From NCBI GenBank assembly GCA_951804945.1, contig OX638153.1, positions 61,442,001 through 61,506,000 on the forward strand: DNA of 64,000 bases, given 5' to 3'. The notes below the pieces were generated by a model, which worked only from the letters and a program-made list of their open reading frames with translations, did no database searches and was not told where the DNA came from. A program made the position numbers and the translations under genes. The stretch comes from Podarcis cretensis (taxonomy: Eukaryota). Positions 55,050 to 64,000 of this stretch are shown piece after piece (position 1 is the first letter of the stretch; the number at the start of each line of letters is the position of its first letter).

Positions 55050-55850
55050 AGCTGCCGCTCCGGCTCCCCGGCCTGCTTTCCATGGTAAGCCCTTCCCTTT
55101 CCGCCACAGCAGCCGGAAACCCGTCTCAAGAAGATGTCGTCACTTATTCAGAAGAGGCACGCGCATGCTCTGCGCCTTTGCTCTCCTCCCTCCCTTTGGC
55201 TGGCCCCTCACACGCGCGCGCGTGATGACGTCGTTCATGTGCACCGCCTCCGGTCGCTGGTGGGGAAGATGGCGGATGGTGGCGACGGCTCGTGAGGCAG
55301 CAGCTTCCGGGATAGGCGAGCTCTAGGTTTTTGGGCCCCGCGTACGGGGCTCTGTGAGCGGCTGCTTTGTGAGTTTTTCTTCTTGAGGCGATTGGCGGTG
55401 GGGAGGCAGGGGTGCGGGAGGGAAGGAAGCCCGGCGACCCGGAAGACCGCCGCGGCTTCCGCCATCTTTAGGCCGCGAGAGGTGCCGCTGTTACGCTATT
55501 GGCGGCGGAGGGGCCTGTGGCTGAAAGCCGGGACAGGAGGAGGACGTTGTGAGGAGAGCGGGAGAGCGGCCGGCGTGGGGTTAGGAGCGAAAGTTTCAAA
55601 AGAGCCGCAAAGTCTTCAGTCGAAGCCCGGTAGGGGAAAGCCGACCATCCATCTGCCCTGCTGTTTCGGGCGCAATAAGTAATTTCGGCCTCGCCCTAAG
55701 ATCCACAAGAGTAGCTGAAGAGTGCCTTGGGTGCAGGGTAGCAGCTGTGTGGGGGATCGGCGCTTTGGGATCCTTTCCACTCAGAGCGCACCTCAGCCAC
55801 TCACTCGCTAGGTGTCCCTAAGATCAACGCCGCCTTACCAACCTCATCTC
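55050..55850. promoter_or_regulatory. CpG-island promoter of the next gene (WDR33 by synteny)
   Basis: NRF1-like GCGCATGC at about 55161, CRE-like TGACGTC at about 55226, YY1/TISU AAGATGGCGG at 55266, ETS CCGGAA. Confidence 0.8.
55240..55368 (+). other. WDR33: Non-coding first exon, probably WDR33; no coding exon in the window
   Basis: Donor candidates GTGAGC (55354) and GTGAGT (55369); identity inferred only from the recalled order SAP130-AMMECR1L-POLR2D-WDR33. Confidence 0.6.
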
Positions 55851-56689
55851 GTTTGCAAAGGAGGGGTGTGTGTGATTATGATAGGCCACCTTACAGGGGT
55901 GTTGTAAGGGCCAATCACTTGTAGATGTGTAGGACGCTTTAGGGACCTTTCTTAAGGTATGCTAGGTAGATGATAAATACATGCTTCATATAATTATTTG
56001 GGAGTGTAACTTCTTGGTGTATGAACATGCAGGGTTTCAAGTAGCATTCGATGTAAGCAAAACAAGTAGCACCTATAACTGTAAGAACAAGGTCAGGCTG
56101 TGTTCCCGAGTGCACTATTTGGCAGAAGCTCAAATGAGTACAATGGGACCTAATTTGAATAAGCATGCATAGGATTGCGCTGTTGCTGTCAGTTGTTAGT
56201 TTAAGAGCCAATAAGATGTATTAACAATGCAAACATATTAGATATATATTTCCATTGTGCAGGAATCTTACGAATATGTTAGGAAAGACTAATACTTTTG
56301 CATTTTTTAAATGTTAGAACAGCATATGCACTGAGAAATTCAATGCAAGTTCCAGAAATTGCTTAGGATCAGATTTTTTACCAGTTACACTCTTATGTTG
56401 AATAAGTACTTGCTAATTTATTTTATCAAGAAGTCATGATTCCACAATTTTCAAAAATACTGTGTGAGTAGGGCCAGTGTGTGAGTAGGATCATGCTCAG
56501 ACAACATTCCTGCCATGTACTACTTGACATACATGCATTTGTTATAAAAGTTTGTATATAAACATTTGTTATAAAGCCTGTAACTTTCTAGTTTCTAATA
56601 TATTCAGTATTAAAGTAAATTTCACATGTTCTCAGAACGCAGGTGTCTACTTTAGAATTAACTGAAACTTAATACTACAGAATGTTTCA

Positions 56690-56787
56690 GTTGAGTGAAA
56701 TGTTTCAGTGGTGCAGGAAGTTAGGATGTAAGTTTACTTTAAAACTTACATCCTACCTTCCTGCACCACTGAAACATTTCACACAAC
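56690..56787. repeat. Near-perfect inverted repeat (46-bp arms, 2 mismatches, 6-nt loop)
   Basis: GTTGAGTGAAATGTTTCAGTGGTGCAGGAAGTTAGGATGTAAGTTT-acttta-AAACTTACATCCTACCTTCCTGCACCACTGAAACATTTCACACAAC. Confidence 0.92.
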
Positions 56788-57909
56788 AATGTTTGAGACA
56801 AACATTACATTTTTGCTGGTAAGCCATAGTTTTGTTCATCTTAAAGTAGAATATTAATAAACCAATAAAATGCTGCAGATTTTATTTCTAATGCTTATTA
56901 ATCATACATAGCTTACACTTCAAATGGAATAGTTTAATCTGTTAGTTGAAATAGTAGCTATCATCTCAAATATGTAAATATGATACCCTTTGAAATAGTT
57001 ATGTATTAAATTCCATGTTACATAATTCTGCAAAAGGAATTAGTTTGACTTCTTAATTTTGAGCTTTTATTTTTATTCCTGAAATTTGGATATAAAGCTA
57101 ATTTGTATTAATTGCATGAACAGTTTTGAGTTGTTCTGCAAACAAATCCAATGGGGAGTGGAATGCCCAGAGAATGCATAGTTGGTACACTTACTGAGCA
57201 ATCCTAACTAGGCATATATGCAAGGATTTCCAGGAAACAGACACGCTGATGTATATATTATGTAAGTTGAATTGCACCCTAACTGCTGCTGGCCATGGTG
57301 GCACAGCCAGAGTTTGGGTGTCCAATATAAACCTTCAATTTCTGACCTTTCCTTGCCTCTAGTAATTACAGTTGCATTTTTGGTGGTATAAATTAAAGCA
57401 AATTCTGTGCATGGGACAAATGAATGAATGAAATTAGGGCACCATGTAACTTTTTTTATCTCTCTGTTCAAGACATCCATCTGCACCCTTAACATACACT
57501 ATTTTGTCCTTTAATTCTGGTAGCTTATTTTTGCCTCAGTAGGGCTCTCCCTTTGCCAGAGTTAGTAGGTATGCCAGAGTAAGTAATGTGCACTGGCCAA
57601 AGTGTGCAGTCAGCAAGTGGAGAGTTATGTCTCATCCCAATCTCTCCCACCTGGTGTATCTGGGGGTTAGGATTGCACATTTAAATTTTGACATGTTGAA
57701 ATATTCACTTTGTCAAACAATCTATGATGAATACCATCACATTGCATGCTCTCTTTAGTTATCCATATGTTAAAAAAAAAGCAGGAGTATCAATACTATC
57801 CACTTGAATCAAACTTGCTCTATAATTTTTTTTAACTACAAGTCTGCTGCTCATTAAGTTATGCCTTCACTTTACTGAAATATTCTAACAATGCCGGGCA
57901 AACCCAGTA

Positions 57910-58224
57910 CAGTGGTGCCTCGCAAGACGAAAAGAATCCGTTCCGCGATTCTCTTCGACTAGCGGTTTTTTCATCTTGCGAAGCAAGCCCATTGACGGAT
58001 TAGCGCTATTAGCGGCTTAGTGGCTTATCAGCTTAGCGGATAAGCAGATAAGCGGCTTAGAAAAAGGGGGGGGGAAAACAAAGTCGGAAAAACTCGCAAG
58101 ACATTTCGTCTTGCGAAGCAAGCCCATAGGGAAATTCATTTTGCGAAGCGCCTCCAAAATGGAAAACCCTTTCGTCTAGCGGGTTTTTCGTCTTGCGAGG
58201 CATTCGTCTTGCGGGGCACCACTG
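57910..58224. mobile_element. Tc1/mariner (Tigger-like) MITE
   Basis: TIR CAGTGGTGCCTCGCAAGACGAA / TTCGTCTTGCGGGGCACCACTG; TA TSD; internal TCTTGCGA and TTAGCGG repeats. Confidence 0.9.
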
Positions 58225-58539
58225 TAGTGACTTTCTGCTCACAGAGGCTTGCTTTCTATGAATGGAAGGAATTTTGGTCCCGCAGAGACTTTCGTAATGG
58301 GAGAAGTGATTTTTGATAGTTCTCCTTTCCCGCCTGCAGTGCCCTTTCAACTGTTCCAGAGGGATCTCCAACCCTCTTGAATATATTTGGGGAATTGGCA
58401 AAAAGTTCTTACCCACCCCTTCTTCAGTCAGTGGATGATAGGAGCACCCTTCCTGTGTCCAGATCTAACCTGCTGGTTTGCCTCACAGACAGTTCCTCTC
58501 TGCTTTATGGAGGAAAAAACCATGCATATATTTACTCAA

Positions 58540-58895
58540 ACTAATAATAATAATATTTACAGAATATCTAAAAACATCATAAGAGCAACATCATCAAATA
58601 AAACCCTGATACAGGAATGCCTTCAGGTGTCTTCTAAAAGTTGTGTAAGTCTTTAAAAAAAAGGAATATTGTTTATTTAAGTTGTGCAATTCTTTATCTC
58701 CTTGATATCTGAAGGGAGGGCATTCCACCGGGAGGGTACCACTACCGAGAAGGCCCTCTGCCTGGTTCCCTGTAACTTCGCTTCTCGCAGTGAGGGAGCT
58801 AGCAGAAGACCCTCAAAGGAGAACCTCAGTGTCCAGACTAAGGGATGGGGGTGGAGATGCCCCTTCAGGTATACTGGGCCGAGGCCATTTAGGTT
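58540..58895 (-). mobile_element. L2 LINE 3' fragment
   Basis: Minus-strand peptide RQRAFSVVVPSRWNALPSDIK resembles the L2 ORF2 C-terminal RAFS..AP..WN.LP motif; (TAA)n tail at about 58542. Confidence 0.8.
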
Positions 58896-59361
58896 GCCAC
58901 ATGCTCTGTTACTGAGAACTTTGTCAGTTGGAGTGCTGCTGTTCCTGACAGATACTTTCAAAATGTCTTCTATTTGGAAGACTCTTACCAATGGCTCGCT
59001 CCACTCTTCACCCCATCCTGCATCAGAATGCAGAAGGAGTTGAGGGTGATTCAGGGTGTATCATTGTTTGGTCTGGAAGATGCCTAACTTTTTTCTCTAT
59101 TTTTTGTCGTGGTCTTGTGGGTCACCTCAAGGCACACTGGGGATCAGAGTCATTGTTTATTTTAAATATAATTACTTGAAGATCCAATTAATTGCAGAAT
59201 GATTTTATTATAAGTACATTATCTGTAAGACTATAATCTTAGCATAAAAAATTAGAAAGGCCCAACTAATCAGATGAGGAATCAAATCTAGCAGACGCAT
59301 ATTACAATTTTGAAATTTGTCTCACTGTTTCACCATTCCCCTGAAAATGAGATTTGGTGTG

Positions 59362-60120
59362 TGTCAGAGCTGCCTCCAGGTCCCAGCTCACAGAGGACCA
59401 ACGCTAGGCTGTAATTATGTACAAAAGTCTTTATTGAGATTCAGTTTCCATTTTAAAGCCGCAGCGTGCAGCTCTACGTCTCGACCTTAGACCGGCGAAG
59501 TCCCGTCTGAGTCTCCTCCCCTTCCACACCAGTTTAAGACCCTCGCCTTGCTCCACCTCTTCCTAAGTTCCTTTCTCCTCTGGGCCCTCCTGCCCGCTAG
59601 GGTCTCATCCTTCCTGGACTCCTCTGACGCTGACCCTGACGATTCTTGCCCCTCCTTCCGGCGGGCTTTAGGACCTGGTTCCCTATCCGGGCTACCCTCT
59701 GTGCCGCTCGCCTGTACCTTTGAACTTGGCGCGCGCGCCCAGCCTGCAACTTTCCTCTTGACCGTTAACTCGCTCTCCGATGGAGGCGTGGTCAACCCTG
59801 ACTCATCTTCTCTCGCTGGTGGTGCATATGTGGGCTCTGACACCTGGGACTCCTCCCCCCCACTACGCTCTGGTGGGGAAGCTGGTCCTGATTTCCAACT
59901 GCTGCTCTGGGAGTCCCCGCTGGCCCCTTGCTTCTGGGGTGTCCCCCTTGGGTCCCACCTTGCACTGGCCATAGGCACCCCCTTCTGTGAATCTTCCGAT
60001 TCGCTGGAGAGGCTCATGGAATCCATCGGGCTGCTGTCATATTCTCCTACGCTGCCCTCGGATTGCTCCCCCTCGCTCTCCATCTCCTCTCCTCCCTGCG
60101 CTCCCGCTGAGTCCCTGACA
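59362..60120 (-). mobile_element. Solo LTR (Gypsy/ERV type), 759 bp, antisense to the host gene
   Basis: TGTCAG...CTGACA termini; 5-bp TSD GTGTG at 59357-59361 and 60121-60125; minus-strand AATAAA at 59435-59430 and TATA-like CTTAAA at about 59538-59533; CpG-rich. Confidence 0.88.
59487..60083 (-). CDS. LTR-embedded ORF, 198 aa, acidic/Ser-rich disordered protein with Arg-rich C-terminal motif (hypothetical)
   Basis: Longest ORF in the window; strong Kozak gaggagATGg; lies wholly inside the LTR; stop about 50 nt before AATAAA. Confidence 0.45.
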   Translation of the reverse strand: MESEGEQSEGSVGEYDSSPMDSMSLSSESEDSQKGVPMASARWDPRGTPQKQGASGDSQSSSWKSGPASPPERSGGEESQVSEPTYAPPAREDESGLTTPPSESELTVKRKVAGWARAPSSKVQASGTEGSPDREPGPKARRKEGQESSGSASEESRKDETLAGRRAQRRKELRKRWSKARVLNWCGRGGDSDGTSPV

Positions 60121-60159
60121 GTGTGACTTCTTAATTAGTTGTCTTCAACAGTGTATTGA

Positions 60160-60360
60160 GACACTGTGGGGTGGGGTGATTGTTGGACTAGGTTTGAGAA
60201 GATCCAGGTTCAAATCCCTACTAAGCCATAAAGCATTTTAGACCAGTCACTATAACTGAAGACCAATCTACCTCACAGAGTTGTTGTGAGGATAACATGA
60301 AACTATAGAAACCATCTACCCTGCCTTGAGATTCTTGGAGGAAAAGTTGGATATAGATTT
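60160..60360 (+). mobile_element. Old MIR/CORE-like SINE
   Basis: GGTTCAAATCCC B-box; ACCTCACAGAGTTGTTGTGAGGATAA core. Confidence 0.65.
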
Positions 60361-61439
60361 AGTGAATAATATAGTTGTTGTGTGGAATGGGCAAAATGTA
60401 ATTGGGTCACAGTAGCTAGCCACGTAAATCAGTATGCCCATCTGTAGTTTGTCTTGGGCATGTAGTAATTGATATTTATATTACGTTCCAGGATCTAAAT
60501 ATTTTAAATAAAAACTCATTACAACAAATTTCTCTGAATGGAACCAGTTACTTGAATTATGGCTTTGCAGAAAAGCTGGCTTTCTAGCAGTCTTCAAGGA
60601 GCCTGCTCCAGAGTAAGAAAGAAGCCCTGGGAGTTACAGTCTGTAGAGATTTAAAACCAGTTTTGCTTCTAATTGTAAATAGTTAGTGTCTGGGGGAAAT
60701 GCCTGGCTTTCTGAAGTTAGATGGGATTCATTATCTTCCACCTTGTTCTACAAATATTTTGTAGAGCTTCATAATTAAGTTACCTTTTGCACTCTGGAGA
60801 GGTTATACGAGGGCACGTACATTGTTCCTAAGACATGCAGGGTTTATAATAAGAAAATGACAAAATTCAAATTGTCTGCAGAACAGTTCATTGAAGAATA
60901 AAATGGGATATTTCACTTTGGACATTTGTCTGCATAAAATTCAGGTCTATTTCTATTTAAAGAAAGTGATTGCACATGAAGAATAAATATTAATATGCAA
61001 GAATCCTGACTAGCAGCACAACCCTAATCATACCTATTCAGAAGTAAGTCCTATTGAATTTAATGGGATTTACTCTCAGGTAAGTAGGGTTAAGTTTGCA
61101 GCCTAAGCAACAAGTGCTAGGATTTAGAAATATGTTGAACTTGCTTAGGTGCAGATACCAGGTATGTTAAACTATGCCATGTACACTTAAAGTCAGATTT
61201 CAGTGGTACAACATCCCACACTTAACCCCTAAAATGGGACTGCTCTCAAGCAGGAAATGTGAAACATAGTATTCATCAGTGGACTAGCTTATGTGCAATC
61301 AAATTACTGATTAATCTGTTGCAGAGAATCTGTTCGAATCTGCAATCTTTTTACTAGTAATATTCATTATAATCCATCAATATTCATTTATAGCAGGATG
61401 CTAAAACCATGGCTTGTATAAGTGTCCAGAAGCAAATTA

Positions 61440-62385
<946 letters not shown>

Positions 62386-62842
62386 AAAGGAACAATTCTG
62401 TGTACTTTTGCTATAATTTTACTATCTATATGGCACTACAAATGTGAGGTCCAAGCACCTCCTTCCTTTCTCATTTTTGAATTCTACTCATTTCTGGTTC
62501 CCAAAGATCCAACAAAGCATCTTAAAAGGAAAATATGCTGTGCTATATATTCTAATGGATCTTAGATATATTATATTGATAATGTTTTTGGACTGCGGTT
62601 TTAACTACAGATGTCCAGAAATGTTTCATAGTTATACCTTGCTTTGGAAACAAAAGATCATATATAGGGATTCCAAACCCATTTATGTGATATTTATCTT
62701 GTATGTAACTTTCACACAGATGTTTTTGTGCCCTTGCTGATGCAATTCCAGAATTGATCTTGGTAACACTGTTCTGGTTTTTTTGGAAAAAATTCTGGCA
62801 TTCTAAATATATTAGAGTCTGATTTAGCATATTTATACAGTA

Positions 62843-63086
62843 CAGTGGTACCTCGGGATGCTAACAGGATCCGTTCCAGAGCTCCGTTCACATCCCAAAC
62901 AGAACGCAAGGCGCATGCGCGGATCACATTTCGCTGCTTCCATGCATGCGCATGACGTCATTTTGAGCATCTGCGTATGCGCGAGCGGCGAAATCCGGAA
63001 GTAACACGCTCCGTTACTTCCGGGTTGTCGCGGAGCGCAACTTGAACGCGCTCAACCCAAAGCACATTCAACTCGAGGTATGATTG
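62843..63086. mobile_element. Tc1/mariner MITE
   Basis: TA-CAGTGGTACCTCGGG ... CTCGAGGTATGATTG-TA. Confidence 0.8.
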
Positions 63087-63325
63087 TACATGGTATAATA
63101 ATTTTGTTAATTACCCATTCATATATTTAGTAAGCATAACTAAAAAGAAATTCTGATTTTATGTGCTATATAAATATATCAAAAAAATAAATTTTCCAAA
63201 AACATTGTAACTGAAAATACACAATCTTATTTGAAATTTATATTTAAACAAATCCAAAACTTTAGTTGGAAATTATTTTTACTATAACAGTTATAAATAT
63301 TCCCCCAAATGGAAACTCTGTAGTA

Positions 63326-63504
63326 CAGTGGAACTGTTCAACTTCCAAAACATTTGAAAACCGAAAATCAAGGGATGGTCAGCAAAATCCATTGAAAAAA
63401 TGGATAAACGTGCCTTGGAAGCTTTCAACGAAAACATTCACTTGTCGATGTTCAGGTTCTGAATTGTTCTTCAATGAAGTCGTTTGAGAACCGAGATTCC
63501 ACTG
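63326..63504. mobile_element. Tc1/mariner MITE with internal deletion
   Basis: TA-CAGTGGAAC ... GAGATTCCACTG-TA. Confidence 0.7.
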
Positions 63505-63510
63505 TATATA

Positions 63511-63682
63511 CCATATTTACTTTAATGTGCCATCGAATCTAATGTACACCTCAATTTTCAGAACCTTGAAACCAAAAAGTATTTGCTGGCGAATATAAAT
63601 GTGCTATTGAATCTAATGCACACTTTAATTTTCACAATGTTATTTGGCAAAAAAAGGTGAGCGTTAAATTTGAGTAAATGCT
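63511..63682. mobile_element. Degenerate Tc2/pogo-like MITE
   Basis: TA-CCATATTTAC ... GAGTAAATG; repeated GAATCTAATG. Confidence 0.5.
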
Positions 63683-63792
63683 CAAATTATATAATGTACT
63701 TCCTTATATTGATTACAATTTGGCAAAAAATTAAGGCACAGGAAACTTCTACTAATTTTAACTTACTTAAAAAAAACTACATCATCTTCATA

Positions 63793-64000
63793 CAGTGGTA
63801 CCTCGGGTTAAGTACTTAATTCATTCCAGAGGTCTGTACTTAACCTGAAACTGTTCTTAACCTGAAGCACCACTTTAGCTAATGGGGCCTCCTGTTGCTG
63901 CCGCGCCGCCAGAGCATGATTTCTGTTCTCATCCTGAAGCAAAGTTCTTAACCCGAGGTAATATTTCTGGGTTAGCGGAGTCTGTAACCTGAAGCGTATG
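63793..64000. mobile_element. Tc1/mariner MITE, same family as 15730-15937, cut by the window end
   Basis: TA-CAGTGGTACCTCGGGTTA; shared GGGTTAGCGGAGT. Confidence 0.85.

Follow-up and report, generated by a model that had tools for sequence, protein, structure and literature searches.

Accessory genes that overlap U3, such as nef, MMTV sag and foamy bel, are known from complex retroviruses, as are the basic motifs of Rev, Tat and Rex. Among LTR retrotransposons, Tf1/sushi elements have a self-priming layout and no tRNA primer site, as set out in the accessible text of PMC7175516 and PMC6317226. In plant chromoviruses of CRM group A, according to the accessible parts of PMC3059260 and PMC3605345, a putative targeting domain, the CR motif, is encoded in the 3′ LTR. 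In yeast, the C-terminal half of the Ty1 integrase is long and disordered (PMC8487063), the same protein serves as a substrate for CK2 (PMC9673352), the integrase tails of Ty1 and Ty5 contain a short host-binding segment (PMC10050235), and the targeting domain of Ty5 is a short phosphorylated segment that binds Sir4 (telomeric chromatin; PMC4700185), each as stated in the accessible portion of the paper.

We analysed a solo LTR in a stretch of 64,000 nucleotides (the window), together with its relatives in the same lacertid assembly. The element resembles the Tf1/sushi elements of the V-clade (Sushi-ichi, Amn) in its Gag domains, in the order PR-RT-RH-IN-SH3_Tf2-1-Chromo, in its self-priming site and in the lack of a tRNA site; however, its Pol carries ~350 aa beyond the chromodomain, of which the LTR encodes 210, and the chromodomain is degenerate. 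A coding region reaching into the 3′ LTR, as in CRM group A, was looked for and found in the lacertid element as well. This likeness is an analogy only, with no sequence similarity found: the CRM elements use tRNA-Met priming in plant hosts and their CR motif replaces the chromodomain, whereas the lacertid element self-primes in a vertebrate and keeps a chromodomain remnant. With the yeast Ty1/copia elements Ty1 and Ty5 it would share a long disordered integrase tail with a short host-binding segment, yet these belong to the copia superfamily and have tails internal to Pol and outside the LTR, and Ty5 targets silent chromatin in the vicinity of telomeres rather than a repeat at a fixed phase. 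The accessory genes of complex retroviruses are similar in that a protein frame shares U3 sequence and includes an Arg-rich stretch, but they are separate genes of env-bearing viruses, expressed from spliced or internally promoted RNAs, whereas the lacertid frame is fused to Pol and has no conserved start.

Coding into the 3′ LTR is already known from plant chromoviruses, and the protein itself is in UniRef, where the Podarcis muralis entries named 'Gypsy retrotransposon integrase-like protein 1' (P0003-P0007) belong to the same family; the name is automatic and the LTR overlap is unmentioned. The accessible part of PMC3601003 holds nothing on coding LTRs, and no description of the family, of its LTR-encoded tail or of its telomeric insertions was found in open papers, a body of literature outside Repbase, Dfam, subscription journals and supplements. 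Nor did these papers describe a selected tail that takes up the whole of U3 in a Tf1/sushi element of a vertebrate, or a subfamily inserted in telomeric repeats.

The solo LTR and its open frame

The LTR in the window has TG...CA ends with the perfect 6-bp inverted repeat TGTCAG/CTGACA, is flanked by GTGTG on both sides (+ strand) and contains 36 CpG dinucleotides (observed/expected 0.58), position for position the 759-bp element that the sequence-only reading had described (Table 1). A first look at the assembly gave 2001 candidates for this LTR family, and all 40 that were scored were 98-100% identical; subfamily A, to which the window copy belongs, has 2163 exact LTR starts. The 30 best loci by closeness comprised 21 solo LTRs with a 5-bp target-site duplication (TSD), seven 5′ LTRs and two 3′ LTRs, with the same 198-aa ORF present in 26, while the window copy differed at six positions from every one of the 35 other 759-bp copies compared. 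Subfamily A is a young, high-copy element family in this lacertid, and the closest loci, together with the full-length relatives described below, bear out the view that the window copy is a young solo LTR and that its source is an LTR retroelement of squamates. The solo LTR likely arose by LTR-LTR recombination.

A WD40 gene on the + strand likely contains the LTR in its first intron, in antisense orientation (window 55100-64000, L265). The first coding exon of this gene, which we take to be WDR33, is at L265:4626, with a WD40 domain match, and SAP130 and an Rpb4/POLR2D exon lie upstream. The same intron holds a decayed LTR resembling those of family D, described below (L265:1508-1970).

On the minus strand, an ATG at 60083, 37 nt from the LTR edge, opens an ORF of 198 aa that ends in TAA at 59487, followed by the AATAAA signal, all as noted earlier; the frame has no stop back to the LTR edge. 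Its product, hereafter the tail, is acidic and rich in S, G, E and P, with 11 K/R within the last 35 residues. Rev, Tat and Rex carry a Leu-rich export signal or a Cys-rich domain, and neither was found among the six scattered Leu and single Cys of the tail. A structure model of low confidence (mean pLDDT 40.6, five sequences), in which the chromodomain is likewise unfolded, predicts disorder except for a single helix at the basic C-terminal end. When the LTR was shuffled with its dinucleotides preserved, an ATG-initiated ORF of at least 198 aa arose in 5/5000 cases and a stop-free run of at least 210 codons in 23/5000, so that an ORF of this length, which the sequence-only reading had weighed against base composition, is beyond chance. 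A Pfam search of both LTR frames at E up to 1, Rev/Tat models included, matched no family. The antisense frame of 211 codons was rejected as a gene: two stops interrupt it in subfamily B and one in subfamily C, and we regard it as the coding frame's shadow.

Table 1. Positions of the features in the window, with example loci of telomeric subfamily C copies
Feature	Position	Strand	Basis
Solo LTR, subfamily A, 759 bp, Ty3/Gypsy Tf1/sushi-type chromovirus	59362..60120	-	Full-length parents found
TSD GTGTG, 5 bp, left copy	59357..59361	.	Flank sequence
TSD GTGTG, 5 bp, right copy	60121..60125	.	Flank sequence
Open frame, 210 codons + TAA, very probably Pol C-terminal tail (encoded by the 3′ LTR in full-length elements)	59487..60119	-	Parent elements, selection tests
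Internal ATG, subfamilies A and B; not conserved (0/56 subfamily C LTRs)	60081..60083	-	LTR comparison
Basic stretch RRAQRRKELRKRWSKAR + V-L-N-W; sole helix predicted within the LTR-encoded residues (model of low confidence)	59520..59591	-	Sequence and structure model
TATA-like TTAAA, putative, ~29 nt before predicted start, overlapping Leu-Asn codons	59533..59537	-	Sequence; role inferred
AGACGGGACTT, complementary to primer-binding site: predicted RNA 5′ end and self-primer, U3/R border	59498..59508	-	Co-varying pairs; family D layout
AATAAA polyadenylation signal	59430..59435	-	52 nt 3′ of the frame's stop
Antisense open frame, 211 codons, read as shadow of the coding frame	59491..60126	+	Interrupted in subfamilies B, C
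Telomeric subfamily C copies (examples)	L161-L180; L112-L120; C1:28-75 kb; C3:1-53 kb; interstitial C3:121.83-121.95 Mb		

The parent element and continuity of the frame with Pol

Examination of ten regions yielded subfamily A elements of ~6.55 kb (6.5-6.7 kb) with 5-bp TSDs, whose LTR pairs show 5-10 differences where their lengths match. In Pfam searches Gag matched Retrotrans_gag, Ty3_capsid, DUF4939 and zf-CCHC, and Pol matched RVP_2, RVT_1, RT_RNaseH, Integrase_H2C2, rve and SH3_Tf2-1, followed by a weak chromodomain (Pfam Chromo 19 bits, E 0.0011, under the 25.1 cut-off, in four of five members). The order PR-RT-RH-IN, the direct LTRs and the short TSD of the full-length elements are those of Ty3/Gypsy, and the closest solved structure is Ty3 Gag-Pol. 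We classify the parent as a Tf1/sushi-type chromovirus by its domain order and self-priming layout. The pol frame is -1 relative to gag, and the overlap contains the heptamer G GGA AAC in all three subfamilies (L035:2345-2351; L105:2140; L102:2554), presumably a -1 frameshift site of the PEG10 type.

Within a single frame, Pol proceeds from PR-RT-RH-IN-SH3 through the degenerate chromodomain, a ~140-aa linker and the polypurine tract into the LTR-encoded tail. One subfamily A copy has an uninterrupted frame of 1563 codons, which begins before the protease, crosses the polypurine tract (G-G-M-D/V-R) and ends at the stop of the solo LTR ORF; the other nine regions are mostly broken further upstream, with the chromodomain-to-stop frame kept in L026/L039, L031 and L135. 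Many copies of subfamily C contain a 1556-codon frame running into the LTR, and an 865-codon frame of subfamily B ends at the corresponding LTR stop. The whole tail is also present in the Podarcis muralis protein P0003, with 61% identity across the last 414 aa. All named homologues of the parent proteins are from Podarcis. Ten matches came from a profile search against 1.84 billion representatives, a collection with sparse coverage of eukaryote repeats; four of them included the LTR-encoded part, and every named one is from Podarcis.

Since the Pol frame runs through the polypurine tract to the same stop, the LTR frame very probably encodes the last 210 residues of Gag-Pol, the polyprotein of a Ty3/Gypsy retrotransposon of lacertids. 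The suggestion of the sequence-only reading that the frame begins in the lost internal region was thus correct, as the full-length relatives demonstrate. Coding by the LTR also accounts for the ORFs, and for the spurious gene models, that lacertid solo LTRs show.

A deleted derivative of subfamily C, with an internal part of 2744 bp instead of ~4960, was found at several independent sites, where its two LTRs are identical (L108, L118 and others). This suggests a non-autonomous form, in which a frame of 817 codons, with the tail at its end, is retained. Elements are often nested in one another, with LTRs inserted within the linker or the internal region (L031-L040, L181-L200), and a few pairs of 5′ and 3′ LTRs mix subfamilies (C1:20634-27266).

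Predicted transcription start and self-priming

The 11-nt word that follows the 5′ LTR has its complement inside the LTR, 147 nt from the end. Of 52 putative 5′-LTR flanks, 51 can pair in this way over 9-11 nt, the site being 145-149 nt from the LTR end, and the pairing exists in three versions that co-vary. The primer site is therefore complementary to ~11 nt at the predicted RNA 5′ end, as in self-priming elements. From this layout the RNA is predicted to start near 59508, ~20 nt before the stop of the frame, and given that start the frame covers ~20 nt of R and nearly all of U3 (~610 nt), which would serve both as promoter and as selected protein sequence in thousands of LTR copies. With the frame upstream of this predicted start, the promoter of a solo LTR would leave it untranscribed; the earlier proposal that the gene is spread by every solo LTR thus holds for the sequence, which solo LTRs do carry, but not for its expression. 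The element was not found in any of the runs on record as RNA, and three contig sets of runs guessed to be RNA contained no joint from the donor-like site after the 5′ LTR, a result of no weight for or against splicing.

The sequence-only reading had proposed that the frame is an independent Rev/Tat/Rex-like accessory gene, dispersed by solo LTRs. Such a gene would be expressed from the LTR ATG or by splicing at the GTAAGT just after the 5′ LTR. An ATG in strong Kozak context is indeed found in 56/58 A and 27/28 B LTRs, the GT-AAGT word resembling a splice donor follows every 5′ LTR in families A-C, and the junction of the polypurine tract and the LTR provides another ATG in the same families. 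However, the LTR ATG occurs in 0/56 C LTRs, and P0003 and P0004 of Podarcis muralis lack it as well. The ATG at the junction is not part of solo LTRs and is replaced by GTG in family D. The frame is conserved while its start is not, which argues against an independent gene start. The splice-donor reading of GTAAGT was set aside, because its AAGT belongs to the self-priming site, so that primer pairing explains the letters, and because family D has GCAAT there. Moreover, the frame is continuous with Pol and upstream of the predicted start, the element has no env, no Rev/Tat family was matched even at E<=1, and the window copy is antisense to its likely host gene. We therefore regard a separate accessory gene as very improbable.

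Selection on the tail and its counterpart in a distant family

Pairwise comparison of real copies gave dN/dS values for the tail of 0.43 [0.29-0.66] between A and B, 0.27 [0.15-0.42] between A and C and 0.31 [0.18-0.44] between B and C. The enzyme domains are under tighter constraint (0.05-0.24), and for several sub-segments of the tail the confidence intervals include 1. Neutral simulations had median dN/dS of 0.64-0.86 and reached 0.27 in 0/1000 and 0.43 in 2-32/1000 cases. In DNA alignments of six representative LTRs, an excess of third-position differences appeared in 15/15 pairs, 14 of them at p<0.05, although these pairs are not independent; between A and C the differences by codon position were 64/73/103. 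Indels within the frame measure 3, 18, 45 or 63 nt, with one in-frame B-C gap split 1+2 by the aligner, and those after the stop 1-2 nt. Simulated neutral drift left the frame open in 57-92/5000 runs at d=0.2 and in 0-1/5000 at d=0.5; intact frames were counted in 53/58, 20/28 and 52/56 copies, fractions that are biased upward by being drawn from the top matches. The in-frame indel bias and the dN/dS below 1, which had been named beforehand as tests, together with the third-position excess and the shuffles, show that the LTR frame is truly coding and under purifying selection.

Between A and C, the tail is the most diverged part of Pol, with 50% identity against 59% in the linker, 71% in the chromodomain and 86% in the integrase core. 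Short blocks within it are nevertheless invariant as protein, with synonymous variation, over ~35% DNA divergence; in SSESEDSQKG and the basic stretch, changes are mostly synonymous or R/K swaps, and two lineages have a synonymous replacement of the Leu codon on the TATA-like site. Since promoter and primer signals coincide with the last 18 codons, the conservation of these codons is partly at the DNA level.

A distant family, D, has LTRs of ~405-434 bp and 1351-codon frames, in which Pol extends 100-109 codons into the LTR (L221-L264; P0017, P0019, P0022, P0023), half the length of the tail in the window family, and enters it in the same junction phase as in A. The two tails are not alignable by BLASTP. 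That of family D ends in a basic stretch and LLCWK, so that L-x-W is common to D and A, and in both the W lies 23 nt before the primer site. Among 12 family D elements examined, four of the five with delimited LTRs self-prime, with an unrelated sequence, and the chromodomain of family D scores over the Pfam cut-off, unlike that of the window family.

It is quite unlikely, in our estimate, that the tail has no job of its own, Pol merely running on while selection keeps the frame open, soluble and harmless and U3 signals constrain the DNA. Low complexity and predicted disorder would suit such a sequence, as would a dN/dS well over that of the enzyme core, an LTR-encoded length ranging from 100 to 232 residues and the overlap of L-x-W with the TATA-like site. 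On the other hand, the dN/dS is under the neutral null, the invariant blocks vary synonymously, and L-x-W persists where the TATA-like letters are lost. An earlier stop would also have been simpler, and many unnamed chromovirus Pols do end 37-56 aa past the chromodomain motif.

A proposed role of the tail on the integrase

We propose that the RNA would start near 59508 in the 5′ LTR and self-prime reverse transcription, and that the tail would be translated only from the 3′ LTR of the genomic RNA, by ribosomes that frameshift into pol. The tail would then remain on the integrase, where its basic clusters may act as a nuclear localisation signal and SSESEDSQKG, SW[KR]SxPASPPE and the basic helix with L-x-W may bind host chromatin factors and thereby bias the insertion site. 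Position, composition and precedent suggest, by analogy, that if the frame is the Pol tail, a role in import or tethering is moderately probable. The combined reading, that the LTR frame is a Pol tail serving as a disordered nuclear-import or chromatin-tethering extension of the integrase, is the one toward which we lean, by a modest degree.

Less probably, with perhaps a one-in-several chance, the tail is made as part of Pol and freed by the protease of the element, to become a separate small protein. Such a protein would bind the RNA or cDNA of the element within the particle, with the basic helix as an RNA-binding motif, or would counter silencing. The K/R density of the last 35 residues and the maintenance of the basic helix by R/K swaps would fit RNA binding, and the long acidic linker would separate such a protein from the chromodomain. 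Against this, no protease cleavage site was identified, Pols of the Tf1/Ty3-type layout end with integrase and chromodomain, and the CR motif is described as an integrase part.

A sister subfamily in telomeric repeats

The subfamilies contrast sharply in insertion site. Subfamily C, with an LTR of 784 bp, is lodged in arrays of (TTAGGG)n, where 110+137 LTR starts adjoin telomeric repeats at one phase, in both orientations and with the TSD GTTAG/CTAAC, and reversed-pattern controls gave 0. These LTRs occupy interstitial arrays and small contigs, and most large contigs have them at their ends. Subfamily C accounted for 19/20 sampled telomeric loci, and A- or B-type LTRs for 3/110, while subfamily A itself had 1/2163 starts in arrays, with one orientation tested. 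As 386 of the 775 C starts are 3′ LTRs, there are ~389 insertions, of which roughly 60% (up to 247/~389) are in arrays; these counts are exact matches in one assembly, and they give shares of insertions rather than an enrichment over the array fraction of the genome.

We compared 31 full-length C copies, 14 telomeric and 17 interior. Thirteen of the 14 telomeric copies have the GTTAG/CTAAC duplication, and 13 have identical LTR pairs; the 14 carry 12 LTR haplotypes. In a tree the telomeric and interior copies are mixed, one telomeric copy being identical to an interior one, and mean differences were 15.3 among telomeric copies, 18.9 among interior copies and 17.2 between them. The 12 haplotypes, identical LTR pairs, TSDs and mixed tree fit independent, recent insertions made by the integrase, and amplification of the telomeric copies by recombination from few founders is disfavoured by the haplotypes and the tree. 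Interior C duplications are varied, so that C is biased rather than strictly specific. Integration of subfamily C is thus probably telomere-biased.

Granting that bias, our hypothesis that the LTR-encoded tail causes it is possible, although somewhat short of an even chance. Since A and C differ in the chromodomain (71%) and linker (59%) too, the difference in target is not assignable to the tail. The motifs [FYH]xLxP and PxVxL are bound by shelterin and HP1, respectively, and a scan of the subfamilies found none that was C-specific or within the tail. The full reading, in which the U3-encoded tail is a target-selection module replacing a decaying chromodomain, its divergence in C redirected integration into (TTAGGG)n, and a vertebrate LTR retrotransposon is now colonising telomeres, with chromosome ends that alternate element and repeat, is correspondingly more doubtful as a whole, and we offer it tentatively. 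If the tail does select targets, the dispersed and telomeric subfamilies provide a natural contrast, with integrase cores that differ little. If the telomeric insertion is true, a vertebrate LTR element would join a short list of telomere-inserting retrotransposons, those named in the accessible part of PMC4700185 being non-LTR elements of insects and Ty5; it also bears on telomere structure, on interstitial telomeric arrays and on the assembly of lizard chromosome ends.

Subfamilies A and B accumulate elsewhere in the subtelomere, beyond the TTAGGG arrays, with copies nested in one another (C1:1-250000, L181-L200), and 17 among the first 100 A starts listed on C1 fall within its first 241 kb.
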